Positions 1,387-30,853 of a DNA stretch of 46,776 bases are shown here, one piece after another. The notes beneath the pieces are model-generated. The model worked only from the letters and a program-made list of their open reading frames with translations. It had not been told where the DNA came from and ran no database searches. Positions within the stretch are counted from its first letter, which is position 1. Every line of letters begins with the position of its first letter. The position numbers and the translations under genes were made by a program. Origin of the DNA: Thermoleophilaceae bacterium (GTDB lineage Bacteria > Actinomycetota > Thermoleophilia > Solirubrobacterales > Thermoleophilaceae); contig JBEVKE010000133.1 in NCBI GenBank assembly GCA_040509835.1, positions 1 to 46,776 of the forward strand, written 5' to 3'.

Positions 1387-1453
1387 TAGGTTTTCACGCT
1401 TTCTGGGAAGACCAGTCTCTATGCGGGATTCAAGGCAACAAGGAGCTAAGCAC

Positions 1454-3364
1454 ATGCGTGCCGGGATTATCGGTGCCGCAACCGGCGTGATCGGCATGCT
1501 CGCCGCGGCCGGACCTGCGTTTGCGCAGTCCAACGGCACGCAGCCGGCCGGAGGCGCGGCGCTCGGAGAGGCGATCGGCGCCACCGCCGGCGCGCTCGTG
1601 GCCACAGCGCTCGTGATGCTCCTCATCTCGCGCCACCGCACGGGTCGCACCGACATCCTGAACCGCTTTGGCAGCTGGGCCGAGCGCCACACGGGGCTGC
1701 CCGCCTGGGCCTCGGTGCCGTCGATGCTGCTGAGCGTCTCGCTGCTTGTCGCCGTGCTCGGCATGTACTGGGACATCTCGCTCCACATCGATAACGGCCG
1801 CGACCCCGGGCCGCTCGCCAACCCCGCCCACTACCTGATTCTCGTCGGGCTGTACGGCGTGCTGGTGGCGGGCGTGATGTCGATCGTCATGTCCGGCACG
1901 GAGCGCCCCGTCAAGACGGCCATCCATCTGGGCGGAGACTGGTGGGCGCCGGTCGGCGGCCTGATGATGGCGGCCTGCGGCGCCTTCGCGCTGAGCGGCT
2001 TCCCGCTCGACGACATGTGGCACCGGCTGTTCGGCCAGGACGTCACGCTGTGGGGCCCGACACACCTGATGCTGATCGGCGGCGCGTCGCTCGCGACGCT
2101 CGGCGGCATGGTGCTGATGGGCGAGGCCATCACGGCGACCGGGCGCGACCCGGAGCGCGAGGCCACGCCGCTCGTCTACCACGTGCGCCGCGCGCTCTTG
2201 GTGGGGAGCTTCCTCGTCGCCCTATCGACCTTCCAGGCCGAGTTCGACTTCGGCGTTCCCCAGTTCCGCGAGGTCTACCAGCCGATCCTGATCATGCTCT
2301 CGGCGGGCATCGGCCTGGTCACCTGCCGGCTCTTCGCCGGTCGCGGCGGAGCGCTCCTGGCCGTGGCCGGCTACCTCGTCATCCGCGGCTTCCTGTCGAT
2401 CATGGTCGGTGTCGTCTGGGGCGAGGTCACTCCGCACTTCCCGCTCTACATCGTCGAGGCGCTCCTGGTCGAGGCCGTCTTCCTTCGGGCCGGTGGCCGC
2501 AGCCCGGTCGTGAACGGAGCCATCGCGGGCGGGCTGATCGGAACGATCGGCCTCGCCGCCGAATGGGCGTGGTCTCACATCTGGATGCCGATCCCGTGGA
2601 ACGACTCGCTGCTCCCCGAGGCCGCGATCGCCGGCTTCCTCACGGCGGTGGCCGCCGGCGTCGTCGGCGGCTTCATCGGCGGCTCGCTCGTCGGGAGGAG
2701 CGGCGCGCTGATCAGCCGCGAGGACGGCGCCCGGCTCACCTCGGGCGACCGCCGCGCCGCCCTGGCAGGCGGGCTCGTGCTGCTGGCGGTCATCGGCTGG
2801 GCGCTGCCCCTCTCGACCTCCGGTCCGGAGCGCGCCCAGGTGGCGCTGAAGGACATCCAGAGCGGCAGCCGGCGCACGGTGGCCGCGACGATCAAGCTCG
2901 ATCCGCCCGGCTCCGTGAAGGATCCGGAGTTCATGAACATCACCGCGTGGCAGGGCGGCAGGACGCGCGTCCTCGACCCGCTGGAGAAGGTCGGGCCGGA
3001 TGTCTACCGGACCACCAAACCGATCCCGGTCTACGGCAGCTGGAAGTCCACCCTGCGCATGCAGCAGGGCGATGCGCTGATCTCCATGCCGATCTTCCTG
3101 CCGGAGGACCGGGCGATCCCCGCCAAGAAGGTTCCGGCGAAGGCGAGCTTCACGCGCGGCTTCCTCGCGGACAAGAAGGTGCTCCAGCGCGAGCAGAAGG
3201 CGGGCGTGCCGGGCTTCCTCACGCTGTCCGCCTACCTCACGGTTCTCGCGATCGCGCTCTCACTGATCGCCCTGATCGCGTGGTCGCTCCTGCGGGTGGA
3301 TCGCGGCGAGGCACGTTCGCGTGGGGCCGGCAGGACACGGCGCCGCCAGGCCGAACTCGTGTGA
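1454..3364 (+). CDS. Large polytopic membrane protein of unknown function (signal peptide, >10 predicted TM segments, soluble domain near the C-terminus, terminal TM)
   Basis: The ORF track gives 1421..3364. I prefer the ATG at 1454 because AAGGAG (1440..1445) sits 8 nt upstream and the product then starts MRAGIIGAATGVIGMLAAAGPAFAQ (signal-peptide-like). His-containing motifs: DISLHIDNGRDPGPLANPAHY and DDMWHRLFGQDVTLWGPTHL. Confidence 0.75.
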   Translation: MRAGIIGAATGVIGMLAAAGPAFAQSNGTQPAGGAALGEAIGATAGALVATALVMLLISRHRTGRTDILNRFGSWAERHTGLPAWASVPSMLLSVSLLVAVLGMYWDISLHIDNGRDPGPLANPAHYLILVGLYGVLVAGVMSIVMSGTERPVKTAIHLGGDWWAPVGGLMMAACGAFALSGFPLDDMWHRLFGQDVTLWGPTHLMLIGGASLATLGGMVLMGEAITATGRDPEREATPLVYHVRRALLVGSFLVALSTFQAEFDFGVPQFREVYQPILIMLSAGIGLVTCRLFAGRGGALLAVAGYLVIRGFLSIMVGVVWGEVTPHFPLYIVEALLVEAVFLRAGGRSPVVNGAIAGGLIGTIGLAAEWAWSHIWMPIPWNDSLLPEAAIAGFLTAVAAGVVGGFIGGSLVGRSGALISREDGARLTSGDRRAALAGGLVLLAVIGWALPLSTSGPERAQVALKDIQSGSRRTVAATIKLDPPGSVKDPEFMNITAWQGGRTRVLDPLEKVGPDVYRTTKPIPVYGSWKSTLRMQQGDALISMPIFLPEDRAIPAKKVPAKASFTRGFLADKKVLQREQKAGVPGFLTLSAYLTVLAIALSLIALIAWSLLRVDRGEARSRGAGRTRRRQAELV

Positions 3365-3409: not shown

Positions 3410-3556
3410 TTCACCGCCACGCCGAATCCGCCTCAGTGCGGAACGGGGGAACCAAGGTGGCCATGCCAACGGCCACTGGGGCGAACCTTCCTTCTGGAAG
3501 GCGCGCAAGCTCTTTCAGCGCGAGCCCGTCAGCTAACCCCGTAGGCGTTCGAAAGA
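3410..3556 (+). promoter_or_regulatory. c-di-AMP riboswitch (ydaO-yuaA class), 5' leader of the NlpC/P60 gene
   Basis: Contains the hallmark blocks CGCCGAAUCC, GAACGGGGGAACCA, GGGGCGAACC and the 3' block GCCCGUCAGCUAACCCCGUAGGCGUUCGAAAGAGA. This closely matches my recollection of the B. subtilis ydaO element (...CCCGUCAGCUAACCUCGUAAGCGUUCGAAAGAG). The boundaries are approximate. Confidence 0.85.
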
Positions 3557-3558
3557 GA

Positions 3559-4134
3559 ATGCCTTCTACCTTCTTAAACAGGTTGCTTTTCGCCGCGCTG
3601 GCGTTCGCATGCGCGCTCGTCGCCGTGCCGAGCGCGATGGCGCAGAGCTCGTCGATGAGCGGCGGCGGCGCGACCTTCCAGCCGCCCCCGCCGCCACCCG
3701 CCAAGGCGAAGCTCGTGGACGGGCGCCTGCTCGCACCCGCCTCGGCGCCCATGCGCATCAAGCGCGTGATCGCAGCGGCGAACCAGATCGTTGAGAAGCC
3801 GTACGTGTACGGCGGCGGCCACCGCCCGTACCGGCGCGGCCAGCTCGACCGCGGCTACGACTGCTCCGGCAGCGTGTCGCACGCGCTCCACGGCGGAGGC
3901 TTCCTCCGCTCACCGCTCCCGAGCGGCGCGCTCATGAGCTGGGGCTCGAGCGGCCCGGGCACCTGGCTGACGGTGTACGCGCACGGCGGCCACGCCTACC
4001 TGGTCGTGGCCGGCTTCCGCTTCGACACGTCGATGCACGACTCGGACGCGCCCGGCCCCGCGACCGGCCCGCGCTGGAGCAAGACGCTCCGCCGCTCGTC
4101 CGCCTTCGTGGCGCGGCACCCGAGCGGATACTGA
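3559..4134 (+). CDS. Secreted NlpC/P60 (C40) family cell-wall peptidase
   Basis: Start chosen at the ATG at 3559 (MPSTFLNRLLFAALAFACALVAVPSAMAQ, a signal peptide). The longer track ORF from 3436 would run through the riboswitch. Catalytic-Cys motif YDCSGSVSHAL and a downstream GGHAYLVV His motif are present. Confidence 0.85.
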   Translation: MPSTFLNRLLFAALAFACALVAVPSAMAQSSSMSGGGATFQPPPPPPAKAKLVDGRLLAPASAPMRIKRVIAAANQIVEKPYVYGGGHRPYRRGQLDRGYDCSGSVSHALHGGGFLRSPLPSGALMSWGSSGPGTWLTVYAHGGHAYLVVAGFRFDTSMHDSDAPGPATGPRWSKTLRRSSAFVARHPSGY

Positions 4135-5362: not shown

Positions 5363-5713
5363 GTGTCCAGCGGCGACACCCGCTCATTGATCAGGCAGGC
5401 CGTGGAGAACCTCTACGGTGAGATCCCGGCGCTCAAGCAGCTCAAGCTCGTGATCCGGCTCGAGCTGCGCGCCCGCGGCGACGTGCCGATCTGGCGCGTG
5501 GAGGTGCCCGGGCCGGAGATCTCGAAGGACCCGGCGGGCGACGCCCGCATCGACGTGTCGGTCTCGCGCTCCCACTTCAACGAGCTGGCGGCCGAGGGGC
5601 GGCTCCGCGACTGGGTGGACGCCTACGAGCACGGCCACGTGCGGGTGAGCGGCGAACCGGCCGTGACGAAGCTGATCGGCAACGTGATCCAGCGCCAGCT
5701 TGCGCGGACTTAG
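5363..5713 (+). CDS. SCP2 sterol-carrier-like small protein
   Basis: 116 aa with a GTG start 2 nt after the ACAD stop. The pattern (...HFNELAAEGRLRDWVDAYEHGHVRVSGEPAVTKLIGNV) resembles an SCP2/alkyl-sulfatase C-terminal-type lipid-binding domain. SCP2 next to an ACAD is a common arrangement. Confidence 0.55.
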   Translation: MSSGDTRSLIRQAVENLYGEIPALKQLKLVIRLELRARGDVPIWRVEVPGPEISKDPAGDARIDVSVSRSHFNELAAEGRLRDWVDAYEHGHVRVSGEPAVTKLIGNVIQRQLART

Positions 5714-5774
5714 CGGGCCGAGCCCGCGCATGGACAGCACATCCATCGCCCCTCGTGGCTAGCATGGCCGTCCT

Positions 5775-6200
5775 ATGGAGGCCTCCCACGGCACGGAGCC
5801 TCGCGTCATCAGGCTGAGGGACGCGCCCGACGCGATCGAGCTCAAGACAACCGACCTGCTCGGCCGGCTGGAGGCACAGGCCGAGGAGAACGGGCGACTG
5901 GCGGCGAGAGCCGAGTCGTTCGAGCGCGTGGCGCGGGCGGAGCGCGACGCGCGCCGCCGGCTATCGGACACGCTGAAGCGCGAGCGTAAGAGTGCCCGGG
6001 CCCTGCACGAGCGCGCGGAGCAGGCCGAGGCGGCCCTGGCCGCGAGGACCGAGGAGGCGGAGCGCCACGAGCAGGCGCTCGCGGTCTCCGAGCAGCAGCG
6101 GCACCTGACCTGGATGCAGCTGACCGAGGCCTCGCGTCAGGTCGAGCTGCAGACGCGGCCGCCGTGGCGAAAGCTGCTGCGCCGGCCGCCGAGCCGCTAG
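5775..6200 (+). CDS. Hypothetical charged coiled-coil protein
   Basis: 141-aa ORF with the high third-position GC typical of coding sequence here. Very Arg/Glu/Ala-rich and predicted helical. No family recognised. Confidence 0.5.
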   Translation: MEASHGTEPRVIRLRDAPDAIELKTTDLLGRLEAQAEENGRLAARAESFERVARAERDARRRLSDTLKRERKSARALHERAEQAEAALAARTEEAERHEQALAVSEQQRHLTWMQLTEASRQVELQTRPPWRKLLRRPPSR

Positions 6201-6607
6201 TCGAGCACCACCTGCGTACAGGTGAAGAGGGCCGCGTTGCGGCCCTCCTTCCTGATGAGCACCTCCCACACCTGGGTGCGGCGGCCAACGTGGAGCGGGC
6301 GGCCCACGGCCGTGAGCACGTCGCCCTCGCGGGCGGCGGTGAACACGTTGGCCTTCAGCTCGGCGGTTGTGAAGTCCCTGCCGGGCTCGAGGTGGCGGAA
6401 GGTGCCCCAGGCGGCGACGGTGTCGGCAAATCCGACCCAGACGCCGCCGTGCACGTAGCCGCCGGGGTGGAGGTGGCGCCGGTCGACGGTGAGCCGGCCC
6501 TCGACGCTGTCGTCCGCGATCCGGATCACCTCGATGCCGATGTCGCCGGGGAAGCTGCCCTCGATCCCCTCGCGGAAGCGCTCCGGGGTGACCTCCGGGT
6601 TGGTCAA
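6197..6607 (-). CDS. PaaI/hotdog-fold acyl-CoA thioesterase
   Basis: 136 aa. [22 protein letters not shown] plus the C-terminal pattern [11 protein letters not shown] match PaaI-type 4HBT thioesterases. The start overlaps the stop of the 1316-aa gene (6604..6607). Confidence 0.85.
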
Positions 6608-9600
6608 CCGGCGCCGGTGCCGAGCCGGAAGTGGTCCCTGACCGCGACCGCGCCGAGCGCCGCCTTGTAGACGGCGACCTCGTCGAGCACGCCCGCGTAG
6701 GCGCCCGGGTCCCCAGATCGGCGCCCGGCCGGGCCTCCGAACAGGAACGACCGCGAGCGCACGTAGGCAATCCCGGCCGAATAGCGCCGCGCCCCGCGGC
6801 GCCGGCCATTCAGGTACAGCACCAGCGATCGGCCGTCATAGGACGCGACCAGGTGGTACGTCTGGCCGCTCCTGAGAGCGGGCCCCGTGACCGACGCGCG
6901 CCGCCCGCGGGCTCCGCCGAGGGCGACCACGGGCCGGTGCCGAGCGTCCAGGTACAGCGTGAACCCGTCGGCAAGCGGCTTGCGGGCGTCGGTCACGAGA
7001 AGCGGCCTGCGCGCTCCGCCGCGTGCGGCGCGTTCGAGCCAAAGCTCCACCGTGACGGCGCGTGGGCTCCCGATGGCGGCCGGCGGAAGCTTCACCCGGT
7101 CGTCACGGCCATCGAAGCGGCGAGCGCCATCCGATTTCGTTTGGATCAGGGCGTCGGCGCGCGCCGGTCCACCGAGGTAGCGGCCGCGGTTGCCCGACCT
7201 GAGGTCGGCCGCGCGACCACCGGCGTCGCCGAGCGGCCAGAGCCCGAGCAGGCCGCGCGTGCCGGCGATCACCTCCGAGTAGCGACGGGCGGCCGGGCCG
7301 GCCTCGATGGTCCAGGAGCGCGTGGCCGGCGTGGGGTCCACGTTCGCCGCGCCGTCGCGCGCGCGTACGCCGAACGAGTGCGTCCCGACCGCCAGGCCGT
7401 CGTACGAGCGCGGCGATGTGCAGGCGCCGTACTCCGCGCCGTCCAGGCTGCACTCGAAGCTCGCGCCCGGCTCGCTCGCGAACGCGAAGGTCGCGGACGT
7501 GCTCGTGGTCGAGCCGGTCGGGCCGGACGTGATCTGCGTGTCCGGCGCGGTCATGTCCGGATCCGTGCCGCCGTAGACCCGCGCATCGAAGAAGGAGATG
7601 CCGAACATCGTGGCGCGGCTGAGCGCCGTGATACGGACGAAGCGGGCCGTCCTGGGGGCGAAGGTGGTTCTCCGGAGGCCCGGCGCGGAGATGTTCTCGG
7701 TGGCAGCCGTCGCGAAGTTGACGCCGTCGGTGGAGGTCTGGATCTCGTAGCTCGACGCGTACGCGGTCTCCCAGTTCAGCTCCACTGCGTCCACGGTCCG
7801 GAGCGCGCCGAGGTCCACCTGCCACCACTGGTTGTCGTCCGACACGCTGCCCCAGCGCGTGATCGAGTCCTCGTCCACCGCCTTGGACGGGTCGAGCGTG
7901 CCGGCGATCTGGGTGCTCGACGCGGAGGCGGGACGCCCCGCGGCCTTGTCCTCGAGGACCGGGTCCGAGTCGGGCGGGCCGAGGGCGCGCGCCGCAAAGA
8001 ACGACACGCCGAAGCTGGTGCCGTGTTGCTGCACCTGCAGCCTCACGTACCGCGCTTTGCGGGTCTGGAAGCCGGTCCGCTGCTTGAGCGCGTCGGTCAC
8101 CGACTCGCTTGCGGCCAGCGACCAGTGAACGTGGTCGACGGAGGTGAGGACGTCGTAGCGGGACGCGTAGGCGGCCTCCCACTCCACCTCGAGCGCGGAG
8201 ACCGACCGCGCCGAGCCGAGGTCGACCTCCCACCACGGATGCGGGTCGAGGCCCTGGGCCTTGCTGGCCCAGCGCGTGGTGGGGTCGTCGTCGGTGGCCT
8301 TGCCGGGGGCGAGGGTCGGGTCGTTGTCCTGGAAGCTCGACGCCGTCGCCGGGTGGCCGTTCGCCTTGTCCTCCAGGTAGCGCACGGAGAGGCCTGACGC
8401 GTGGTCAGGGATCTCGAGCTGGCGCAGGCGGCTGCCGCCGTCGGCCCAGGAGTCGAAGAAGTAGTTGACGCCGTTCTTCGTGAAGCGCGCGGCCGCGGAG
8501 ATCGAGGTGTCGAGGCCGATCGCCGAGAGGGTCGAGAACGGGGCGGTCACGGCCAGGCCGGCGTACGAGAGCGGCGCACCGGGCGGGGTGCTCTGGATCT
8601 GGAACGGCACGCCCTGGGGCCGAAGCTGGATCGTGGTCTGCCGCCATTCGTTGTCAAAGTCGGTCGCGCGGAGGCGCACCTCGTAGAACGAATTGGTGTC
8701 GTGATCTCGCCGTGCCACGAAGCTCGGGTGGGCGGTCCCGTTGAACGTCCCGACGAAGTGCGTGTGCGCGCCGTGGTGGAGGATCACCGTCCACGACAGG
8801 CCGGAGGCCGGCAGCGTGCCGTCCTGCGCGTCGGTCGCCGACCCGCTCAGCGAGATCGTGTCTCCGTCGTGGTAGGTCGACTCGTCCGCGGGGCTGTCGA
8901 TCGAGGGCGTGGGCGGGCTGTCGAACACCTCGACGTCGACGCTCTCGTCGTCGGTGTGGTGGTCGGGGTCCTCCACCGTCACGACCGCGTGGTAGGAGCC
9001 TGCGTTCGTGTAGATGTGGTTCGGGGTGGCGCCGGTGCCGGTCGTGCCGTCGCCGAAGTCCCAGTGGTAGGTGAGCGCCTGTCCTTCCGGATCGCTCGAG
9101 CCGACGGCGCTGAAGGTGACGGTGAGCGGCTTGCCGCCCGCGACCGGGTCGGCCGACGCGAGCGCGTGCGGGGCGCCTGTGCTCGGCTCGTACACGATCT
9201 CCTTGATTGAGCCGGTGCCCGGCTCGCCGGTGCCGAGGTCTGGGTAGGCGATGTTGCCGTCGGGCGCGAGCAGCAGGTCCACGCCCATCCAGTCATCGGA
9301 CAGGTCGGTGGTGCCGGTCACCGCCCCGCCCGAGTCGAGGTTCAGCAGCTTCAGGAAGCTGTCGCTGTAGTCCCCGAAGAACATCTGGCCGTCGTAGGAG
9401 TCCGGGTACGGGCCGCCCGGGTAGATCGGGCCGCCTATGATCGCGTTGGTCGCGCCGTGGAGGTAGAAGTAGTTGGGCGGGACGTGCGCGGCCGCGGTGC
9501 CCTCCTTGGCGTACTCCGGGTCGCACTTCGGGTCGTCCTGATAGGTCGTCGTGTGCACCGGGCCCTCGTAGCAGGGCCACCCGTAGGTGTGGCCGGGCGT

Positions 9601-10554
9601 GCCGACGAGGTCGACCTCCTCGCGCGTGTTCCAGCCGACGTCACCGATGCTCAGGGCGCCGTCGGGCGTGCCGTCGTCGCGCCACTTGAAGCGGAACGGG
9701 TTGCGGAACGCGAGCGAGTGGATCTTGGTGCAGACGTGCGTGAGATCGGTGTCCGACGGGCAGAACGGATGGCCGGGCAGGCCGTTCCCGTTCCGGTCGA
9801 TGTGCAGGATCTTGCCGGCGAAGCTGTGCTGGTCGTAGACGCGGAACGCGAGCTGGTCGAACTCGGCGTAGCTCGACGCATCGCCGGATCCCACGTAGAG
9901 CGTGCCGTCGGACGCGGCTGCCACCGTCCCGATCGAGTGCGAGCGTCCCTCGGAGGGGAGGCAGTCCAGGTCGTTCGCGGATGGCCACGTGGACACGAAG
10001 TTCTGGGTCACGCAGTCCGTCCCATCGGTGCCCACGACGCCGTCGCTGCCGAGCAGGACCGTCCTGTCCGACACGCCGTTCGAGCCGCTCACCTGGATGC
10101 GCTCGAGGCGCGAGAACGTGGGCGCGTCGGTGTCCGCCATCAGCGGATGCTTTTCGGCGGTGTAGAGCAGGTAGACGTAGTGGTTCGTCTCGTAGTCGGC
10201 GTCGATCGCGAGGCCGAGCAGCCCGCGGTCGTACGCATCGTTCACCTCGTCCGAGATGTCGAGGATCGTGCCGGCGCTCGTCTCGCCCTGGTTCAGAACC
10301 TTCAGGACGCCGGACTTCTCCGCAATGAAGAGTCGGCCGTCCGGCGCCCACGCCGCCGTCGTGGGGATCGTGAGCCCGCCCACGATTGCGTCCTCGTGGA
10401 AGTTCGCGTCGGCGTATGTAGCGGCCAGGGCCGGACCGGCGACAAGGCATGCAGCGGCCACGGCAAGCGCCGTCGCGAGCCCGACGCGAAATGTCCCTGC
10501 GCGTGAGTCCAAACCCTGCAGGTCAAGAGTAGGTGTGACCCGGGCGAGCCGCAA
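6604..10554 (-). CDS. Secreted multidomain protein: PQQ-dependent sugar dehydrogenase beta-propeller + PKD + Ig-like domains + 2x F5/8 type C (discoidin/CBM32-like) + LamG/concanavalin-like
   Basis: 1316 aa with a TTG start. N-terminal hydrophobic signal ([21 protein letters not shown]). sGDH-like motifs ([28 protein letters not shown]). PKD motif ([34 protein letters not shown]). Two discoidin repeats (TTRWASK...WWEVDLG and ITRWGSV...WWQVDLG). C-terminal LamG-like region (LVLYLNGRR...[11 protein letters not shown]). Confidence 0.85.
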
Positions 10555-10558
10555 GCGA

Positions 10559-11560
10559 TCAGTGCGCCAGGCCGCGAATGCCGTGCGAGAGCCGCCTGCG
10601 CGCGGCCGCCGGCACGCGCGCCAGCACCGCCCGCGCGGACCGGTTAACGCCGCTGAGGAGCACTAGCGCGCTCCTCCCCGCGGGGGTGCGCCTCAGCCAC
10701 AGCGGCAGCTCGCGCGGCTCGAGGCGGACCGGAACGTCGGCGGCGAGCAGCAGGCGCGGCATGAGCCGCACGTATGCATCGCGCGACGCGCGGATCCAGG
10801 CGTTCCGCTCCCATGGCTTCGGGCCGCCCCAGTAGTGGAGGAGGTAGGGCCTGTGGCCGCGCAGCTCGCACTCGAGGGTGCGCTCGTCCAGCACCCGCAC
10901 CTCGTGGAGCAGCTCGGGCGACGGACCCTCCTCCTCCGGCAGCTCCGTCACCGCGTCGCGGTCCACCTCGCTCATCAGGAGCGCGTTGATCGCGTCCTGG
11001 TCGCCACCCCAGAACGGCTGGTCGTAGTCGCTCGCCGCGACCAGGGTTTGGCCGGACGGTATTCGCCGGCACACCTCCCAGTAGCGCCGGAGCAGGTCGG
11101 GGTGGTGGCGCGTGGAGAGTGCGATGAAGCCGGCGTTCAAGTAGTGCGCGCGCCGGAGCGGGGCGGTCAGCCCGAACGCCCCCTCCCACTCGGGGACGAA
11201 GCGGTGTCGCTGGTCCTCGATGTCGGCGAACATGCAGACCTGTCCCGCCTCGGCCCGCTCGAGGACCGGCTCGAGCGAGCGCGTGACGATCATGTCGCTG
11301 TCGATGATCACGACGGTGCCCTCCGGCTCCAGCGTGTGGGGAAAGGACTTGAGCAGCATGTGCGCCTCGAGCACCTCGCCGGGCGGGCTCACCAGTCGCG
11401 CGTGCGGCTCGAGCCTGCGCCGCTGGGCCTCCGAGAGGCCGGTGTCCAAGATCACCAGCTCGGCGTCGTTGCCGCTGACGCGGAGCGAGTTCAGGAGACA
11501 CGCGACGCCCGGGAAGAAGCGGTCGTTGGCGACCGTGAAGAAGGTCGTGTCAGGCCGCAA
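10559..11560 (-). CDS. Glycosyltransferase family 8
   Basis: 333 aa with GT8 signatures: DxD (IIDSDMIV), [19 protein letters not shown] and HYWGGPKPW. Confidence 0.85.
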
Positions 11561-11801
11561 GCTCTAGCAGTGCGTCATTGTCGTAGAGCTTGATCACCTT
11601 GACGGTGCCGGGCGGCGACGCGTCCAGGCAGAGGCCGCACAGCACGCACTCGTCGAGGTTCGCCTCCACGATGTCCACCCCGCTCTCGGTGGCCGCGTAG
11701 ATGTCCACCGGGCAGGCCTCCGCGAGCTTCCTGGCGAGCTCCGTGTCGCCGGCGGCCGAGTCATCGACCTCCACGCCGATGAACGTGCCGTCACGCCTCA
11801 C
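11550..11801 (-). CDS. Small ferredoxin-like protein (single Fe-S cluster motif)
   Basis: 83 aa. ACPVDI ... ECVLCGLCLDASP gives CP + CxxCxxC, enough ligands for one [3Fe-4S]/[4Fe-4S] cluster. The GTG start overlaps the SucD-like stop (GTGA, 11798..11801). Confidence 0.6.
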   Translation of the reverse strand: MRRDGTFIGVEVDDSAAGDTELARKLAEACPVDIYAATESGVDIVEANLDECVLCGLCLDASPPGTVKVIKLYDNDALLELAA

Positions 11802-12718
11802 GCCGCCACCCCCATCCGCTGCTTGACGAGGTCGGGGATCTCGGCGATCTCCTCCGCGACGACGATGCCGGCGGACGCAAGCCGCTCGATCTTCTCGGCC
11901 GCCGTGTCCTCCTGGCCCTCGACGATCGTGCCGGCGTGGCCGAAGCTCATGCCGGGCATCTCGTCCATGAAGCGGCCGGCCATGAACGCCACGATCGGCA
12001 GCTTCCGGGTGGACTCCTCAGTCACGTAGCGGGCGAGCTCCGCCTCCATGCGGCCGCCGGGCTCCGTGTAGATCACGATCGCCTCGGTCTGCTCGTCGGC
12101 CTCGAACAGCGGCATCAGCTCGGCGTAGGAGGAGCCGATGATGGCGTCGCCGCCGATCGACACGGCCGTGGACTGGCCGAGCCCGGCCGCGGTGAGTGTG
12201 GAGGACATCTCGGTGGTCATGCCGCCTGAGCGCGAGATGACGCCCACCGGTCCCGACGAGTACGCCTTGGCCGCGTCGCGCGCCGGCCCGCCGATGCCGC
12301 CCATCTTGATCACGTCCGGGACGATGATCCCGAGGCAGTTCGGCCCGATGATGCGCGCGCCGCGCGTCCCGGCGAGCTCGACCATCTGCGCCACGTCGGC
12401 GCGCGGGATCCGCTCGGTCACGATCACAATCAGCTCGATGCCGTGCTCGATCGCCTCGAACACGGCGTCCTTCGTGAAGGCGGGGGGCACGGTCACGACC
12501 GACCCCTTGATCGGACCGCCGTGGTGCTCCACCGCCTGCTCGACGGTGTCGAACACCGGCACCCCGTGCACGTCGCGGCCCCTGCGGCCGGGAGTGACCC
12601 CGCCCACGACCTGGGCGCCCCTCCCGTAGTCGAGGCACTCGCGGGTGAGGTTGACCGCCTCGCGGCCGGTGATGCCCTGCACGATGAAGGTGGTGTTCTC
12701 GTCGATCAGGATGCTCAC
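11798..12718 (-). CDS. Succinyl-CoA-synthetase alpha-subunit-like (CoA-binding/CoA-ligase) protein; possible malate-CoA ligase subunit
   Basis: 306 aa. MSILIDENTTFIVQGITGREA, GPNCLGII, SRSGGMTTE and the phosphohistidine loop SFGHAGTIV parallel SucD. GTGA overlap with the beta-like gene. Confidence 0.85.
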   Translation of the reverse strand: MSILIDENTTFIVQGITGREAVNLTRECLDYGRGAQVVGGVTPGRRGRDVHGVPVFDTVEQAVEHHGGPIKGSVVTVPPAFTKDAVFEAIEHGIELIVIVTERIPRADVAQMVELAGTRGARIIGPNCLGIIVPDVIKMGGIGGPARDAAKAYSSGPVGVISRSGGMTTEMSSTLTAAGLGQSTAVSIGGDAIIGSSYAELMPLFEADEQTEAIVIYTEPGGRMEAELARYVTEESTRKLPIVAFMAGRFMDEMPGMSFGHAGTIVEGQEDTAAEKIERLASAGIVVAEEIAEIPDLVKQRMGVAA

Positions 12719-13926
12719 GCCGCCGCACCCTGGATCTTCTCGACGGCTCGCCGCGCGGCCTCGTGCATCGACACCGAGCGGTCGCAGTACTCCACGCCGT
12801 ACAGCTCGAGGATCTTGAACCCCTCCTCCTCCCAGGCGCCCGGGATGCGGAAGATGGCGATCTTCTCGGCGGGGTCGTAGCCGAGCTCGAGGCAGGCCTT
12901 GATCACGCCGCGGGCGACGATGTCCACGCGCGTGTTGGACACGATGGACATCATCACCGCGATCTTGTCCACGCCCGGCTTCTGGAGCACGAGCTTCGCC
13001 AGGCCGGCGGCCTTACGCACCGACGGGTTGCCGCCGATCTCGCAGTAGTTCGCCGGCCGGCCGCCGTGGGCGCGGACGGCGTCGAAAAGCGTCAGCGAGC
13101 CGCCGCCGGCGCCGATCACGAGGCCGAGGTCGCCGTCGAACTCGGTCACGTTGCCGGCCACCCCGCGGTGGTCCATGGAGTCGACCTCCTCGCCGGCCAG
13201 CTCGAACTCGGTGGGCTCACGTGCCTCGCGCGTCTCCTCGTCACCCACGCCGAGCTCGTTCAGGAGCGCCTGCTGGCGCGGCCGGGCCTCGTTCTCCATG
13301 TCCATGTGCGCGTCGAGCGCGACGAACGAGCCGTCCTTCAGCTCACCCAGCGGGTTGATCTCCGCGAGCGTCATGTCGTAATCCACGAACAGCTCGGCCA
13401 GCCGGGCGAGGATGGGGGTCATGCGCGTGAGCGCGCGGCCGGTGACGCCCGTGGAGGCGATCACCTCCTTCGCCATGTAGTCGCTGAACGGCTCGATCGT
13501 CGAGAAGTGGCGGCGGCCGACCTTGTCCGGCTGCTCCTCCGCCACCTGCTCGATGTCGATGCCGCCGACCGGCGAGAAGATCATCACCGGCTGCTTCGTG
13601 AGGCCGTCCCAGACGACGCCGGCGTAGTACTCCTGCTTCACGTCTGCCTTCGGGTCCACGAGCACGCCGCGCGGCATGTGGCCGCCGATCTCGAGCTTCA
13701 GGATGTCCTTGGCGTACGCAGCGGCCTGGTCGGCGTCGTCGGCGAACTTCACGCCGCCCGCCTTCATGCGGCCGCCGGTGAGCACCTGCGACTTGATCAC
13801 CGTCGGCCCACCAATCCGGCGCGCGATCTCGCGCGCATCCTGGTCGGTCGTCGCGAAGCCGAAATCCGTGACCGGAATCCCGGCCCGCCGGACGATCTCG
13901 CGTGCCTCGTACTCGAAGAAGCGCAT
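12715..13926 (-). CDS. Succinyl-CoA-synthetase beta-subunit-like (ATP-grasp) protein; possible malate-CoA ligase subunit
   Basis: 403 aa. The N-terminal ATP-grasp (MRFFEYEAREIVRRAGIPV...VIKSQVLTGGRMKAGGVKF) and EINPL motif match SucC. It is divergent from canonical SucC in the C-terminal half. Confidence 0.85.
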   Translation of the reverse strand: MRFFEYEAREIVRRAGIPVTDFGFATTDQDAREIARRIGGPTVIKSQVLTGGRMKAGGVKFADDADQAAAYAKDILKLEIGGHMPRGVLVDPKADVKQEYYAGVVWDGLTKQPVMIFSPVGGIDIEQVAEEQPDKVGRRHFSTIEPFSDYMAKEVIASTGVTGRALTRMTPILARLAELFVDYDMTLAEINPLGELKDGSFVALDAHMDMENEARPRQQALLNELGVGDEETREAREPTEFELAGEEVDSMDHRGVAGNVTEFDGDLGLVIGAGGGSLTLFDAVRAHGGRPANYCEIGGNPSVRKAAGLAKLVLQKPGVDKIAVMMSIVSNTRVDIVARGVIKACLELGYDPAEKIAIFRIPGAWEEEGFKILELYGVEYCDRSVSMHEAARRAVEKIQGAAA

Positions 13927-13957
13927 TTGGGCGCGGAACCCTACCGCGCTACAGGAG

Positions 13958-14467
13958 CTACGGAAGCTGGATGTCGGGCAGCTGAGTGCCCGGCAGCGTC
14001 AGCCTGCCGGCGTGCAGCACCCAGATCGTGGCGCGGCGGCCGCCGAAGCGGCCGCGCGTGACGCCCGCACCCTGGCGGCGCATCGTCGGCGACAGCACGA
14101 TCGCGCGGTGCGACGGCGACGCCAGCCACCGCCGGAGCGAGCCGTGCACGTCGAACCGGCGCCCCGAGTGCCACTCGAGCGCCTCGCCGATCAGCTTGAA
14201 GCGGCTGCTGGCCCAGACCGAGCTCTGATGGGTGAACACGTCGTGCTCCATCAGATACTGCGAGTAGCCCTCCGCCGACGCGGTGAGCGAGGCGGACGTG
14301 CGGAAGGCGGGCAGCCCGTGCTCCGCTCGCACCGCGTTGATCGCCTCCGTCATCTGGCGCTCCGCCCGCTCGTTGGGCGTCAGCCCTGCGGCTGAGGCTG
14401 GTATGGCGAGAGTCATCAGCGCGGCCACCCCGGCCGCGACCGTGCGCATCCGTGGCACTGAGCTCAC
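13958..14467 (-). CDS. Secreted CAP/SCP/PR-1-like (YkwD-type) domain protein
   Basis: 169 aa with a signal peptide (MRTVAAGVAALMTLAIPASA). CAP pattern: INAVRAEHGLPAF...SQYLMEHDVFTH...GEALEW...WLASPSHRAIVL. GTG start at 14467; the ATG at 14449 is an alternative. Confidence 0.8.
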   Translation of the reverse strand: MSSVPRMRTVAAGVAALMTLAIPASAAGLTPNERAERQMTEAINAVRAEHGLPAFRTSASLTASAEGYSQYLMEHDVFTHQSSVWASSRFKLIGEALEWHSGRRFDVHGSLRRWLASPSHRAIVLSPTMRRQGAGVTRGRFGGRRATIWVLHAGRLTLPGTQLPDIQLP

Positions 14468-14469
14468 CT

Positions 14470-14605
14470 TCTCTTCAGGCCTACGGGGTTAGCTGACGGG
14501 CTGGCGCGAAGAGATGCGCGCTCCGCCGAACGTCCGGCGATTCGCCCCTACTACCTGGTTCCCCCGTTCGCGACTACGGCAACAGCCGCGATTCGGCGTT
14601 GTATC
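14470..14605 (-). promoter_or_regulatory. c-di-AMP riboswitch (ydaO-yuaA class), 5' leader of the CAP-domain gene
   Basis: The reverse complement reads ...CGCCGAAUCGCGG...GAACGGGGGAACCAGG...GGGGCGAAUCGCC...GCCCGUCAGCUAACCCCGUAGGCCUGAAGAGAAGG. These are the same conserved blocks, in the same order, as the element at 3410..3556. The boundaries are approximate. Confidence 0.85.
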
Positions 14606-14636
14606 CCCGGAATGTTCTACCCCACGTCGGTCGGAA

Positions 14637-15701
14637 TTAAGCGCGCGCGGGCTCGAGCTCGTATGCGGCGGCCAGCTCCGGGTCCTTGCGAGCCAGCATC
14701 TCGGCCAGGTCGACCATCACCTTGCACTGTTTCCAGGTGGCGTCGTCCTGCATCTTCCCGTCGATCATGTGCACGCCGCGGCCGTCCGGGATCGCCTCGA
14801 GCACCTTCTTGGCGAACTTGACCTCTTCGGGGTCGGGCGAGAACACCTTCTTCGCGATCTCGATCTGGGCGGGGTGGAGCGACCATGCGCCCACGCAGCC
14901 GAGCAGGAAGGCCGCGCGGAACTGGGTCTCGCAGCCCTCGGTGTCCCTGATGTCGCCGTACGGGCCGTAGAAGGGCAGGATGCCGGCGCCGGCGCAGGCA
15001 TCCACCATGCGCGCGATCGAGTAGTGCCACGGGTCCTGCTGGGCGGTCGCCCGGGGCGCGTCGGGGTCGTCCGGGGCCGGGTCCTCGATCACCCGGTATC
15101 CGGGGTGGCCGCCGCCCACGCGCGTCGTCTTCATCCGCCGGTTCGCGGCGAGGTCGGCCGGCCCGAAGCTCATGCCCTGCATGCGCGGGCTCGCCGTGGC
15201 GATCTCCTCGAGGTTCGTCACGCCCTGGGCGGTCTCGAGGATCGCGTGGATCAGGATCGGGCGGTCGAGCTCGGCCTTCGCCTCGAGCTGGGCGAGTAGC
15301 CGGTCCACGTAGTGGATGTCCCAGGCGCCCTCCACCTTCGGCACCATCACGACGTCGAGCCGGTCTCCGATCGCGGCGATCAGCTGGGTCAGGTCGTCGA
15401 GCACCCACGGGCTCTCGAGCGCGTTCACGCGCGTCCACAGCTGCGTCTCGCCGAGCTCCATCTCGGAGCCCACGCGGACGAGGCCCTCGCGCGCGGCCTC
15501 CTTGCGGTCCACCGGAATGGCGTCCTCGAGGTTCCCGAGCAGGATGTCCACCTGCGGGGCGATGTCGGGCGCCTTCGCGACCATCTTCTCGTTCGAGAAG
15601 TCGAGGAAGTGGATCATCCGCGAGGGCCGGACGGGCACCTCGCGGATCGGCTCTGGAGCGCCGATCGCGAGCGCCGTGAAGAAATCGCGTGGATTGCGCA
15701 T
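14637..15701 (-). CDS. mcl: L-malyl-CoA/beta-methylmalyl-CoA lyase-like (HpcH/HpaI/CitE family, Chloroflexus Mcl type)
   Basis: Start set at the ATG at 15701 ([32 protein letters not shown]...). As I recall it, the N-terminus of the Chloroflexus aurantiacus malyl-CoA lyase reads ...[23 protein letters not shown]. The whole length parallels that enzyme ([62 protein letters not shown]). The track ORF reaches 15773 but would then overlap the divergent MaoC gene. Confidence 0.8.
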
Positions 15702-15741
15702 GGCCTGCCGGAATCTAGCGGTGAGTAGGATTCCGCGGTCC

Positions 15742-16251
15742 ATGGGCGAGACCGAGACGCGATCGATCGACACCGACCAGGCCGACCGCGAGGCCTCCGG
15801 AGCACGGCCATACGGCCGGTACCTGGAGGACTTCGAGGTGGGCGCGGTCTACAAGCACTGGCCGGCCAAGACCGTGACCGAGGCGGATGACCACCTGTTC
15901 TGCCTGCTCACGATGAACCACCATCCGCTGCACATCAACGACGTGTACGCGGCCGAGTCCCAGCAGGGGCGCAACGTCGTGGTGGGGCCGCTCGTGTACT
16001 CGCTGGCGCTCGGCATGTCGGTGGCCGACGTGTCCGGCAAGGCGATCGCCAACCTCGCCACCGAGGAGCTCCTGCACCCCGCGCCGGTCTTCCACGGCGA
16101 CACGCTGTTCGCCGAGTCCGAGGTGCTCGAGGTGCGCCCGTCGCAGTCCAAGTCCGACCGTGGCGTGGTGAAGGTGCACACGCGCGTCTTCAAGCAGGAC
16201 GGCACGCTGGTGGCTGAGTTCAAGCGCGCCGTGCTCGTCCCCCGCCGCTAA
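15742..16251 (+). CDS. MaoC-like (R)-specific enoyl-CoA hydratase/dehydratase (hotdog fold)
   Basis: Start at the ATG at 15742 (MGETETRS...). The long upstream in-frame extension from 15316 is antisense to mcl. Core: [40 protein letters not shown]...[20 protein letters not shown]. Confidence 0.85.
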
Positions 16252-17279
16252 CCGCGCCGTACGGACGCCCAGCGGGCAAGCCGCCCGCGCACCCTCTGCG
16301 CGAAATGGCCGGCGCGGCCGCGGGCCGTTCTGGGGATCACGAAGCTGTCCAGCCCGTGGTCCGCGGTGGCGAAGCGGGCCTTGTAGGGCTCCTCGCCCAG
16401 CAGGAACCTATAGGCGCGCATGCCGTCGTTGACGGCCTCTCTCACGGCGTGGACGGTGAGCACCCAGCCGACCGACTGGTGGTCGAAGGCCGGATCGCGG
16501 CCCGTCTGGTACGACCAGTCCGAGTCGCCGAACCGAAATCCGTACCAGGCCGCGGCCGGCCGTCCGTTCAACTCCGCGATCCAGAGCCGGAGCCAGCCGC
16601 GGTCCAGCGCGGCGTGCGCGAAGTCGCGGTGAAACGAGCGCGCGGGCTCGAGCTGAAACTCGGTCGCGCCCTCGCCCCAGCGCTTCGCGTGCAGCTCGAA
16701 GACGAGGTTCAGGTCCCGCTCCAGGCCATCGTGGTCGCTGGTGAGCCGGTAGCGCAGGTCGTGGTCCCGCAGCAGCCTCCGCTCGAACTTGCCGGCCTGC
16801 TGGCGGAAGTTCGAGCTCCTCGCGGCGAGGAACTCGTCCCAGTCCGAGGTCTCGATCTCGAGCACCGGGCTCGCCTCGTGAACGGCCGGCGCGGCGCCGA
16901 GCAGCGCCGGCCAGCTCTCCTCGCCAGCGAGCCGGTCACCCAGGAAGAGGTCATGCGGCACGTCGTGGAGCATGCTCCGCAGCTCGCCCCCGGCGACGGG
17001 AAGGTCGGCGGGCGCGCAGACGGCGCCGACCTGGTCGGCCACGCCACCCCCGACGAAGCGGAGCGTCCGTACCGCGCTGCCGCCCCGGTGAAGCGGCACG
17101 AGCGCGGCCACCTGGCCGTCCTGCCGCACGACGCCGAACGCCGGCTCCCGCCCGGCGCCGAAATGGCGCCACCAGGCGGCGGCGAACTCCCACGTGAGGA
17201 ACACGTTCCCGGACGCCGTCGCGAGCCTGTCCCAGTCCTCGCGCAGAGCCTCCAGCTCGCTCGGAAGTGCGGTGCTCAC
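16248..17279 (-). CDS. GNAT-fold acetyltransferase, CelD/BcsL (FemAB-like) type
   Basis: 343 aa. LTWEFAAAWWRHFG ... LNGRPAAAWYGFRFGDSDWSYQTGRDPAF ... YRFLLGEEPYKARFA matches the Acetyltransf_6/CelD pattern found in EPS clusters. Confidence 0.75.
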   Translation of the reverse strand: MSTALPSELEALREDWDRLATASGNVFLTWEFAAAWWRHFGAGREPAFGVVRQDGQVAALVPLHRGGSAVRTLRFVGGGVADQVGAVCAPADLPVAGGELRSMLHDVPHDLFLGDRLAGEESWPALLGAAPAVHEASPVLEIETSDWDEFLAARSSNFRQQAGKFERRLLRDHDLRYRLTSDHDGLERDLNLVFELHAKRWGEGATEFQLEPARSFHRDFAHAALDRGWLRLWIAELNGRPAAAWYGFRFGDSDWSYQTGRDPAFDHQSVGWVLTVHAVREAVNDGMRAYRFLLGEEPYKARFATADHGLDSFVIPRTARGRAGHFAQRVRGRLARWASVRRG

Positions 17280-30654: not shown

Positions 30655-30853
30655 GCCTGCCGGCGCGCGACCGCCGGCGCGCGGATGCCGACAGTTCGTC
30701 TGACCGAACCCCAAACCGGCACTTCTCGACAAGGGCACCCCCGCCGCGAGGCGGGTCCGCAAAGCCACGGGGCTCCTGACGGAGCCGGCCGGGCTGCCGA
30801 ACGAAGATCGCGTGAGCGGTGCCCAGACGTAGGCACGGAGGTGTCGAAGCGTC

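Follow-up and report, generated by a model that had tools for sequence, protein, structure and literature searches.

We have analysed a stretch of 46,776 nucleotides (contig JBEVKE010000133.1 of the Thermoleophilaceae bacterium assembly GCA_040509835.1; called here the window) in which six minus-strand genes run head to tail with almost no space between them. They encode the two subunits of a SucCD-like coenzyme A (CoA) ligase, a small iron-sulfur (Fe-S) protein (fd83), a GT8-like glycosyltransferase, a secreted protein of 1316 amino acids (aa) and an acyl-CoA thioesterase. This string is probably a mosaic: the operon of a hydroxy-dicarboxylate-CoA ligase that carries hitch-hiking envelope genes. 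The original prediction offered two explanations for it, a dedicated pathway leading from acid activation to a glycan outside the cell, or simply a compacted set of unrelated genes. The second is the better supported and is largely borne out, since only the two ligase genes and fd83 (the trio) travel together. The source is a soil metagenome-assembled genome (MAG) of 2.16 Mb, 78% complete, and the data used throughout are from MAGs only.

The trio is found in most members of the order that were sampled. fd83 is present in 55 of 60 relatives as well as in the window's own genome, and the three genes are contiguous in all 20 loci of relatives for which 20-kb stretches were fetched and in all 80 Solirubrobacterales loci drawn from a species-level genome collection (three contigs are shared with the 20-locus set, and sucC-like is cut by a contig end in three). 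When 251 genomes from the whole phylum were searched with a profile, fd83 was identified in only three that lie outside the order. The trio is contiguous in each of these distant Actinomycetota (3/3), with a ligase pair 43-53% identical to that of the window. In contrast, no GT8 homologue is present in any of the 60 sampled relatives. Within the family, the GT8 gene occurs in two of the 210 other genomes (G439 and G346) and is missing from 208, while one of 80 loci (L046) has the full six-gene form and three metagenome contigs (L125, L126 and L129) have parts of it. Here, stretches from relatives have L numbers and genomes G numbers; L046 is from G439 and L024 from G031. Synteny, which had been proposed as a check on the six-gene block, is therefore kept for the trio and not for the GT8 gene, the 1316-aa gene or the thioesterase gene. 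Only some members of one genus (L024, L025, L027, L047, L049, L050, L074, L075, L093 and L102) have the thioesterase gene directly after fd83, of which it is the original downstream neighbour within that genus. The dedicated pathway is not supported by this distribution, nor by the more distant GT8 genes, which lie in polysaccharide clusters without CoA ligases. A core conserved without the envelope genes, together with a GT8 family that occurs without the ligase, points instead to positional hitch-hiking (promoter capture).

A carbon-carbon (C-C) lyase gene recurs beside the trio. It encodes a malyl-CoA lyase (Mcl) in the window and in 17 of the 20 relatives' loci. Among the distant genomes, L208 has the order TRAP DctPQM transporter, trio, CitE/RipC-like lyase, and L209 has a citrate-synthase-type citryl-CoA lyase (Ccl), scoring above the NCBIfam cut-off, directly after the trio, with glutamate mutase and methylaspartase as divergent neighbours. 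Three lyase families are therefore paired with the trio. The trio is therefore an old unit, repeatedly joined to a C-C lyase. As these lyases act on CoA esters of hydroxy-di- or tricarboxylic acids, the ligase would serve to activate the acid in question or, run in reverse, to conserve the energy of the thioester. In four loci of other families (L033, L037, L038 and L119), a GTP-dependent phosphoenolpyruvate carboxykinase (PEPCK) gene adjoins sucC-like; in the window this gene is located at 38773-40578 on the plus strand. This adjacency may indicate that the ligase is connected with C4 acids.

The insertion of the GT8 and 1316-aa genes can be delimited by comparison with a close relative that is free of it, G031. 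In a blastn alignment, homology with the L024 stretch stops at 11549 and resumes at 6606, and in G031 the thioesterase gene lies directly after the fd83 stop codon. The letters TGAC are found at both junctions. The GT8 gene has its start codon within the final codons of fd83. The fd83/GT8 junction of L046 is the same, with GTG in place of TTG at the identical position in the fd83 tail, and since the start codon is kept in this tail, the GT8 reading frame begins in resident DNA. The junctions recur in independent assemblies (L046, L125, L126 and L129). In addition, soil-metagenome contigs span the junction of the 1316-aa and thioesterase genes in runs from three studies, and that of fd83 and GT8 in a single run, possibly the source sample.

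Both genes of the insert are maintained by purifying selection: a comparison of the window with L046 gives dN/dS values of 0.20 for the GT8 gene and 0.31 for the 1316-aa gene, compared with 0.04-0.11 for the metabolic genes. The 1316-aa protein is 71% identical to its L046 orthologue, and several relatives carry paralogues of 40-50% identity at different places near the locus. In soil metagenomes, contig depth reaches hundreds over sucCD-like against approximately 1-40 (mostly 5-15) over the insert; summed depth is a rough guide, but the contrast fits a widely shared core with a rare insert. Over the sucCD-like genes (11780-13770) the summed contig depth is 100-950 in runs X1, X4, X5 and X6, and near-identical copies of these genes appear to be very abundant in soil metagenomes of several studies.

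All six open reading frames (ORFs) are present at the positions given in Table 1, with a third-position G+C content of 0.92-0.97 in each. The close packing described in the original prediction can be read directly from the sequence. SucC-like and SucD-like overlap by GTGA (12715-12718), as do SucD-like and fd83 (11798-11801); fd83 and the GT8 gene overlap by 11 bp, a gap of 4 bp separates the latter from the 1316-aa gene, and this in turn overlaps the thioesterase gene by 4 bp (TTGA). Two of the starts are less firmly placed. The 1316-aa gene may begin at an alternative TTG at 10512, conserved in L046, rather than at 10554, and the thioesterase start is uncertain, the coordinates listed being those of the ORF as called. 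Junctions of no more than 4 bp account for all five in the block and for six of the 16 same-strand pairs elsewhere in the window (using longest-ORF starts); tight junctions are common locally. The genes and junctions of the string are real, but SucC-like is not its head. A CAP gene lies 31 bp upstream and is preceded by a cyclic di-AMP (c-di-AMP) riboswitch and then by the malyl-CoA lyase gene.

Table 1. Position, strand and identifying evidence for the features of the window discussed in the text
Feature	Coordinates	Strand	Evidence
Acyl-CoA dehydrogenase, 399 aa	4161-5360	+	Pfam ACAD domains
SCP2-fold protein, 116 aa	5363-5713	+	Model pLDDT 87.7; Foldseek
Hotdog-fold PaaI/4HBT-type acyl-CoA thioesterase	6197..6607	-	Pfam 4HBT E 1e-16
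Secreted 1316-aa protein	6604..10554	-	Pfam GSDH beta-propeller, PKD, two F5/8 type C, Laminin_G_3; signal peptide
Inserted segment, ~4.9 kb (GT8-like + 1316-aa gene)	6607..11549	.	Between fd83 stop and thioesterase start
GT8-like glycosyltransferase, GT-A fold, retaining-type, ~333 aa	10559..11560	-	DSD, DQD, H242..K248.W250
fd83, ferredoxin-fold protein, 83 aa	11550..11801	-	Invariant Cys, one 4Fe-4S ligand set
SucD-like alpha subunit	11798..12718	-	Pfam CoA_binding 71 bits, Ligase_CoA 52 bits, Succ_CoA_lig
SucC-like ATP-grasp beta subunit, NDP-forming acyl-CoA synthetase	12715..13926	-	Pfam ATP-grasp_2 174 bits
Secreted CAP/YkwD-domain protein	13958..14467	-	Pfam CAP E 4.7e-10; N-terminal signal-like sequence
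c-di-AMP (ydaO-type) riboswitch aptamer	14464..14608	-	Rfam RF00379 80.4 bits, gathering 38, full length 1-134
Malyl-CoA/beta-methylmalyl-CoA/citramalyl-CoA lyase, Chloroflexus type (CitE superfamily)	14637..15773	-	PDB 4L7Z/4L80, Pfam HpcH_HpaI
MaoC-type (R)-enoyl-CoA hydratase	15709..16251	+	Pfam MaoC_dehydratas, MC_hydratase; start within 15709-15790

The family calls for SucC-like, SucD-like, the GSDH/PKD/F5-8C/LamG protein and the hotdog thioesterase all hold by Pfam or NCBIfam. Those for the ferredoxin and GT8 proteins have weak Pfam scores, under the cut-off, and are upheld by cysteines and by DSD/DQD/H..K.W motifs that are invariant in the homologues. The earlier gene identifications were thus essentially right, but the lyase, the MaoC hydratase, the SCP2-like protein, the dehydrogenase and the riboswitch-led CAP gene had been missed.

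The genes for the beta and alpha subunits of the ligase lie side by side, as in nucleoside diphosphate (NDP)-forming acyl-CoA synthetases of the SucCD type. In such enzymes the catalytic phosphohistidine of the alpha subunit sits in a GHAG loop, and in SucD-like this loop (G260-H261-A262-G263) is invariant in 19 sequences. Both proteins are well conserved across the order (84-87% per alignment column). Their affiliation was judged by comparison of scores with reference models and structures. With the NCBIfam equivalog models, SucC-like scores 252 bits for SucC (cut-off 370) and 170 bits for the malate-CoA ligase beta subunit (NF010647; cut-off 604), while SucD-like scores 286 bits for SucD (cut-off 336). 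A canonical sucCD, whose presence elsewhere in the genome had been put forward as a point to check, is located on contig C127. Its SucC scores 516 bits against 251 for the window protein, and SucC-like and SucD-like are only 31% and 39% identical to the canonical SucC and SucD, respectively. From these comparisons, the pair is a paralogue of the canonical SucCD and not the housekeeping enzyme.

The top matches in PDB are structures of succinyl-CoA synthetase (SCS), and citryl-CoA synthetase is at a similar distance. For SucC-like the scores are 180 bits with the Thermus SCS beta subunit and 168 bits with the Hydrogenobacter citryl-CoA synthetase large subunit and, for SucD-like, 237 bits with the SCS alpha subunit and 185 bits with the citryl-CoA synthetase small subunit. 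The public names of close homologues are generic ('ATP-grasp domain-containing protein'), and JGI calls some of them 'succinyl-CoA synthetase beta/citryl-CoA synthetase large subunit'. This name and the comparable scores would suit a citryl-CoA synthetase that, with a CitE-superfamily lyase, carries out two-step ATP-dependent citrate cleavage of the Hydrogenobacter kind, yielding oxaloacetate and acetyl-CoA and feeding PEPCK. The citryl-CoA lyase directly after fd83 in L209 and the PEPCK genes noted above, those beside sucC-like in four loci and the one elsewhere in the window, agree with such a scheme. We nevertheless consider it very unlikely. The lyase of the window shares about 69% identity with a malyl-/methylmalyl-/citramalyl-CoA lyase and is not a citryl-CoA lyase of the citrate-synthase type, and the glutamate mutase and methylaspartase of L209 would suit citramalate or mesaconate as well as citrate.

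The ligand set of fd83 (C30-P31, C52, C55 and C58) is invariant in the order and corresponds to a single cluster. Bacterial 2x[4Fe-4S] ferredoxins carry two CxxCxxCxxxCP motifs with eight cysteines, an arrangement that fd83 does not have. Its structure model has a ferredoxin-like fold (pLDDT 86). A Foldseek search with this model gives no match with E<1e-3 (best E 4e-3), and the nearest structures are Fe-S domains within larger complexes. Eight cysteines, sufficient for two clusters, are found in the homologues of two low-GC Actinomycetota (L209 7957-8193 and L210 5799-6020), and that of L208 (8024-8254) has a number intermediate between eight and four. The series is one of stepwise loss of a cluster, with four cysteines left in the Solirubrobacterales. 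The protein may be a subunit or a regulator of the ligase.

A different role for fd83 would follow if the SucCD-like pair were a second SCS isoenzyme and fd83 an unrelated soluble electron carrier sharing the transcript, for example one serving the nearby acyl-CoA dehydrogenase or a system of the electron transfer flavoprotein (ETF) type. The SucC and SucD equivalogs are indeed the best NCBIfam matches of the pair and SCS its top PDB matches. For fd83, one PF05187-bearing FixX/ETF-QO-type Atlas cluster has a score of 0.92, at rank 30, and there is a weak match (E 0.27) to 7KOE_D, a ferredoxin-like protein linked to ETF systems; PF05187 itself does not match in Pfam. This arrangement is, in our opinion, improbable. 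Both subunits score below the equivalog cut-offs and the same genome contains a canonical sucCD. Moreover, fd83 stays with SucD-like where no dehydrogenase is nearby (L208-L210 and several other loci), the loss of one of its two clusters in the order would be odd for a wire-type ferredoxin, and the constant neighbour is a C-C lyase from one of three families.

By sequence, the lyase next to the trio in the window is of the Chloroflexus type. It matches 4L7Z with 510 bits (E 3e-152, ~69% identity over residues 29-372), compared with 198 bits for the proteobacterial type of malyl-CoA lyase. The longest ORF is homologous only from residue 24-29 onward, and the true start of the gene is probably near 15704. 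The 4L7Z and 4L80 structures are those of the Chloroflexus aurantiacus malyl-CoA lyase, as stated in PMC3832036. An itaconate (Rip/Ich/Ccl) reading, suggested by the best NCBIfam matches, RipC and RipB, was dropped given this ~69% identity to malyl-CoA lyase and only 90 bits for RipC.

Further genes around the lyase and the trio, namely those for the MaoC hydratase, the SCP2-like protein and the acyl-CoA dehydrogenase, complete the picture and, with the lyase, explain the CoA chemistry of the string. The hydratase is similar to mesaconyl-CoA hydratase over the N-terminal half of the latter (PDB 8HGN, a beta-methylmalyl-CoA dehydratase, 94 bits; 4E3E, 90 bits). In its longest ORF (15316-16251), the upstream part shadows the lyase gene, and relatives match residues 132-311 only, as a separate gene. 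The best PDB match of the dehydrogenase is FadE3 (4IV6, 422 bits), followed by methylsuccinyl-CoA dehydrogenase (6ES9, 295 bits); with the 3-sulfinopropionyl-CoA desulfinase model it scores 276 bits for a cut-off of 600. The 116-aa protein has an SCP2 fold: SCP2 and SCP2-type domains head its Foldseek matches (best E 1.3e-5, TM score ~0.6) and, while it has no Pfam match itself, five of 15 homologues match SCP2 (PF02036). This fold rules out the protein as a second hotdog half of the hydratase. The dehydrogenase and the 116-aa protein are conserved as a pair near the ligase operon. The 116-aa protein is always beside the dehydrogenase, with the MaoC hydratase next in other families. The order dehydrogenase/SCP2/MaoC echoes the hydratase-SCP2 layout of eukaryotic multifunctional enzyme 2 (MFE-2), whose SCP-2-like domain (1IKT) is among the fold matches.

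Malyl/methylmalyl-CoA lyase and mesaconyl-CoA hydratase belong to the ethylmalonyl-CoA pathway. Ccr is detected above its cut-off in all five genomes tested, that of the window included, isocitrate lyase in one of the five and malate synthase G in none. In two relatives' loci a B12-dependent acyl-CoA mutase is found near Ccr. With Ccr, the scarcity of isocitrate lyase and malate synthase, and the B12 mutase all pointing to this pathway, it is likely that the hosts run it. A link with sulfur metabolism, for which some relatives have candidates in the gaps of the locus (a sulfate-type ABC transporter, Rrf2, a sulfotransferase), was rejected; these genes are inconsistent across loci and are treated as unrelated insertions.

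The thioesterase scores 77 bits with TIGR00369 (cut-off 36.6) and 42.5 bits, below the cut-off of 118.9, with the PaaI equivalog. Its counterpart in L046 (13442-13844) spans three frames with two frame changes, and is either a pseudogene or the result of indel errors in the assembly.

The inserted genes are of a different nature. The GT8 motifs listed in Table 1 are invariant in 21 homologues. With Pfam PF01501 the protein scores 22.5 bits, below the gathering threshold of 24.3, over residues 237-253 only, but PF01501 is a precomputed annotation of several of its homologues and there is a match to PDB 3TZT (E 0.004). The product of the 1316-aa gene is predicted to carry a soluble glucose/sorbosone dehydrogenase domain of the pyrroloquinoline quinone-dependent type (GSDH PF07995, 91.8 bits, cut-off 25). 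Polysaccharide-synthesis genes are present in 11 of 14 GT8-homologue loci examined, six of which have an adjacent Wzx-type flippase gene; other neighbours are GT4/GT2 genes, NDP-sugar enzymes, C-methyltransferases and DUF4910 genes. The window itself has an exopolysaccharide-type cluster from 16.2 kb onward.

A second insertion of this sort lies at the other end of the trio. The c-di-AMP riboswitch occupies the spacer between the lyase and CAP genes and abuts the CAP start codon. The same pairing of riboswitch and CAP gene is found in L024, L046, L047 and L027. In many relatives, the spacer between lyase and sucC-like is only 10-100 bp and lacks the CAP gene, so the riboswitch and CAP gene together are an insertion between lyase and sucC-like in this lineage. 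By these comparisons, genes for secreted or envelope proteins have split the operon twice in this lineage.

Taken together, the observations suggest the following sequence of events and functions. The trio would be an ATP-dependent ligase producing the CoA thioester of a hydroxy-di- or tricarboxylic acid (of the malate, citramalate, beta-methylmalate or citrate type). It would work with the adjacent C-C lyase, here a malyl-CoA lyase, at the glyoxylate/acetyl-CoA node of an ethylmalonyl-CoA organism, in whichever direction flux runs. The nearby dehydrogenase, SCP2-like protein and MaoC hydratase might supply or consume related enoyl- and hydroxyacyl-CoA esters, and the hotdog thioesterase, a genus-level add-on, would probably hydrolyse the same or a stray CoA ester. 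In one Thermoleophilaceae sub-lineage, a 4.9-kb piece with two envelope genes has entered at the very boundary of the fd83 stop and the start of the thioesterase gene and, separately, a riboswitch with a secreted CAP gene has entered between lyase and sucC-like. The inserted genes are kept by selection; they are presumably co-transcribed with the operon and would be expressed through their position (promoter capture), rather than through a chemistry shared with the ligase.

A number of observations weigh against this explanation. In all three family genomes that have the GT8 gene (the window's own, G439 and G346) it lies within the same operon, at either of two positions: after fd83, or between lyase and sucC-like (G346, 98% identical to L150). 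On a quick tree, the GT8s found within the operon fall into a single group (SH-aLRT 96), which was defined by gene context, with the partial rows L125, L129 and L164 omitted. Envelope-type genes (GNAT/Acetyltransf_6, polysaccharide deacetylase and CAP) recur around the operon in several relatives, a pattern that selection for co-expression or a real functional link would explain as well as hitch-hiking does. On the metabolic side, the dehydrogenase is without the N-terminal extension of the solved methylsuccinyl-CoA dehydrogenase (it aligns to 6ES9 residues 169-551) and is closer to FadE3, and the ligase subunits are below both the SucCD and the MtkAB cut-offs and about equally distant from SCS and citryl-CoA synthetase. 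Finally, no RNA sequencing run was found to contain the stretch (6100-14600), and a scan for promoters and terminators over 5500-16500 returned no sites, a result that is uninformative for this phylum.

The first of these observations are what would be expected if the two chemistries were coupled, as in the dedicated pathway of the original prediction: an acyl-CoA made by the ligase (for example malyl-, succinyl- or citramalyl-CoA) would decorate, or be tied to, an envelope glycan that is built by the GT8 protein and on which the 1316-aa lectin-like dehydrogenase acts outside the cell, with an adjoining GNAT as the acyl-transferring enzyme. Acetyltransf_6 GNAT genes do flank the operon in the window and in L024, L029, L046, L150 and L164, and both the preserved GT8 start in the fd83 tail of L046 and the dN/dS values of the inserted genes are in keeping with such a coupling. 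We nonetheless regard it as unlikely. Besides the near absence of the GT8 gene from relatives that have the trio, there is no ligase at 75 of 80 metagenome loci with GT8 homologues (many of them on short contigs), and the visible neighbours of these homologues are ordinary polysaccharide genes. In distant lineages, the trio has catabolic lyases and a TRAP transporter as partners instead of envelope genes. Furthermore, the 1316-aa gene is beside the GT8 gene in the window clade only and not in L150/G346. Hitch-hiking envelope genes in a metabolic operon thus remain our preferred explanation, in which the ligase and the glycosyltransferase would share no pathway.

The six-gene 'system' therefore mostly dissolves into a conserved metabolic operon invaded by accessory envelope genes. 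One invading gene borrows its start codon from the tail of the preceding gene and a riboswitch-led gene has been dropped into another junction, which calls for caution in guilt-by-association annotation of compact, high-GC genomes. The part that looks new is the ligase with its Fe-S partner. Literature searches (with subscription journals outside their scope) found no description of a SucCD-type ligase with an Fe-S partner, nor of malyl-CoA or ethylmalonyl-CoA metabolism in Thermoleophilia/Solirubrobacterales. At the core of the operon, a SucCD paralogue shows very high conservation among the abundant Solirubrobacterales of soil; in the loci examined it is never without a small Fe-S protein and always adjoins a C-C lyase. 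If this protein is a subunit or a switch, it would represent a new architecture for the family of succinyl-CoA synthetase, citryl-CoA synthetase and ATP-citrate lyase. The ligase could also identify the missing step that handles malyl-CoA or citramalyl-CoA in uncultured soil bacteria with the ethylmalonyl-CoA pathway.

More tentatively, SucC-like, SucD-like and fd83 could be an undescribed class of three-subunit NDP-forming acyl-CoA synthetases, in which a degenerate ferredoxin with a single [4Fe-4S] cluster is the fixed partner, perhaps a redox or oxygen gate, and which is paired with three unrelated lyase families cleaving different hydroxy-acids. This is possible, although we would not expect it on balance. 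A bolder addition is that, in some Thermoleophilaceae, the riboswitch-headed operon has recruited envelope genes and so co-expresses wall remodelling and glyoxylate-node metabolism.

Several other features of the window deserve mention. A second full-length c-di-AMP riboswitch (3410-3562, plus strand, 84 bits) lies between the gene for a 647-aa protein and the acyl-CoA dehydrogenase gene. It leads an ORF that ends at 4134 and has no Pfam family, and the same riboswitch is found at the corresponding place in L024, L025, L027, L029 and L047. The 647-aa protein (1421-3364, plus strand) and a 141-aa protein (5775-6200, plus strand) have no family match and are conserved at the locus within the genus; the gene for the latter converges on the thioesterase gene, the 3' ends overlapping by 4 bp. 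Inside the polysaccharide cluster, a c-di-GMP-I riboswitch (30724-30801, plus strand, 57 bits) directly precedes the gene for a 480-aa protein without a Pfam match (30854-32296). At the far end of the window, a thiamine pyrophosphate (TPP)-dependent enzyme (43369-45015, minus strand) is encoded beside a family III CoA-transferase (45003-46190, plus strand). We take this pair to recall oxalyl-CoA decarboxylase and formyl-CoA transferase, in which case it would presumably be another function of the glyoxylate/oxalate node in the window.

Among known systems, the first to be compared is the malate thiokinase MtkAB which, with malyl-CoA lyase, takes part in the serine cycle of methylotrophs. Both have a two-subunit SucCD-type ligase encoded beside a malyl-CoA lyase, and the expected reactions are the same (acid, ATP and CoA to a hydroxyacyl-CoA, then to glyoxylate and acetyl-CoA, or the reverse). 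The window differs in its score with the MtkAB model (170 bits, far below the cut-off of 604), in a lyase of the Chloroflexus and not the proteobacterial type (510 and 198 bits, respectively), in a third gene, for an Fe-S protein, and in a host with the ethylmalonyl-CoA pathway.

CcsAB of Hydrogenobacter (PDB 6HXQ), with its citryl-CoA lyase, is also a SucCD paralogue whose partner lyase is a separate protein. In sequence it is about as far from the window proteins as SCS is, and L209 has the trio followed by a citryl-CoA lyase. However, the lyase of the window is a malyl-CoA lyase of the CitE superfamily and citryl-CoA lyase is a neighbour only in L209. In addition, 6HXQ contains two kinds of chain, the large and small subunits, and no Fe-S protein is found among the matches.

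The gene cluster mcd-mch-mcl of the lower ethylmalonyl-CoA pathway, known for example in Streptomyces (PMC4606968), resembles the window in having a dehydrogenase, a mesaconyl-CoA hydratase (in the window, a MaoC protein like it) and a malyl/methylmalyl-CoA lyase close together, in a setting where Ccr and a B12 mutase are present. In the window, however, the dehydrogenase has only 399 aa and is shorter than the solved Mcd at its N terminus, the hydratase is a half-size protein with a single MaoC domain accompanied by an SCP2-fold protein, and the ligase trio is attached.

The glycosyltransferase has the DxD-type motifs and the C-terminal H..G.KPW-like motif of the GT8 family (PF01501, 3TZT), and its homologues occupy polysaccharide clusters. 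Unlike typical members, it is marginal to the model and belongs to a distinct, unnamed subfamily of ~333-aa proteins annotated as 'hypothetical'. In Actinobacteria the c-di-AMP (ydaO) riboswitch is reported to control cell-wall-related genes (PMC9960051). The window agrees with this in that a full-length RF00379 aptamer directly precedes a gene for a secreted, wall-type CAP/YkwD protein, but here the unit interrupts a metabolic operon at the boundary of lyase and ligase genes.

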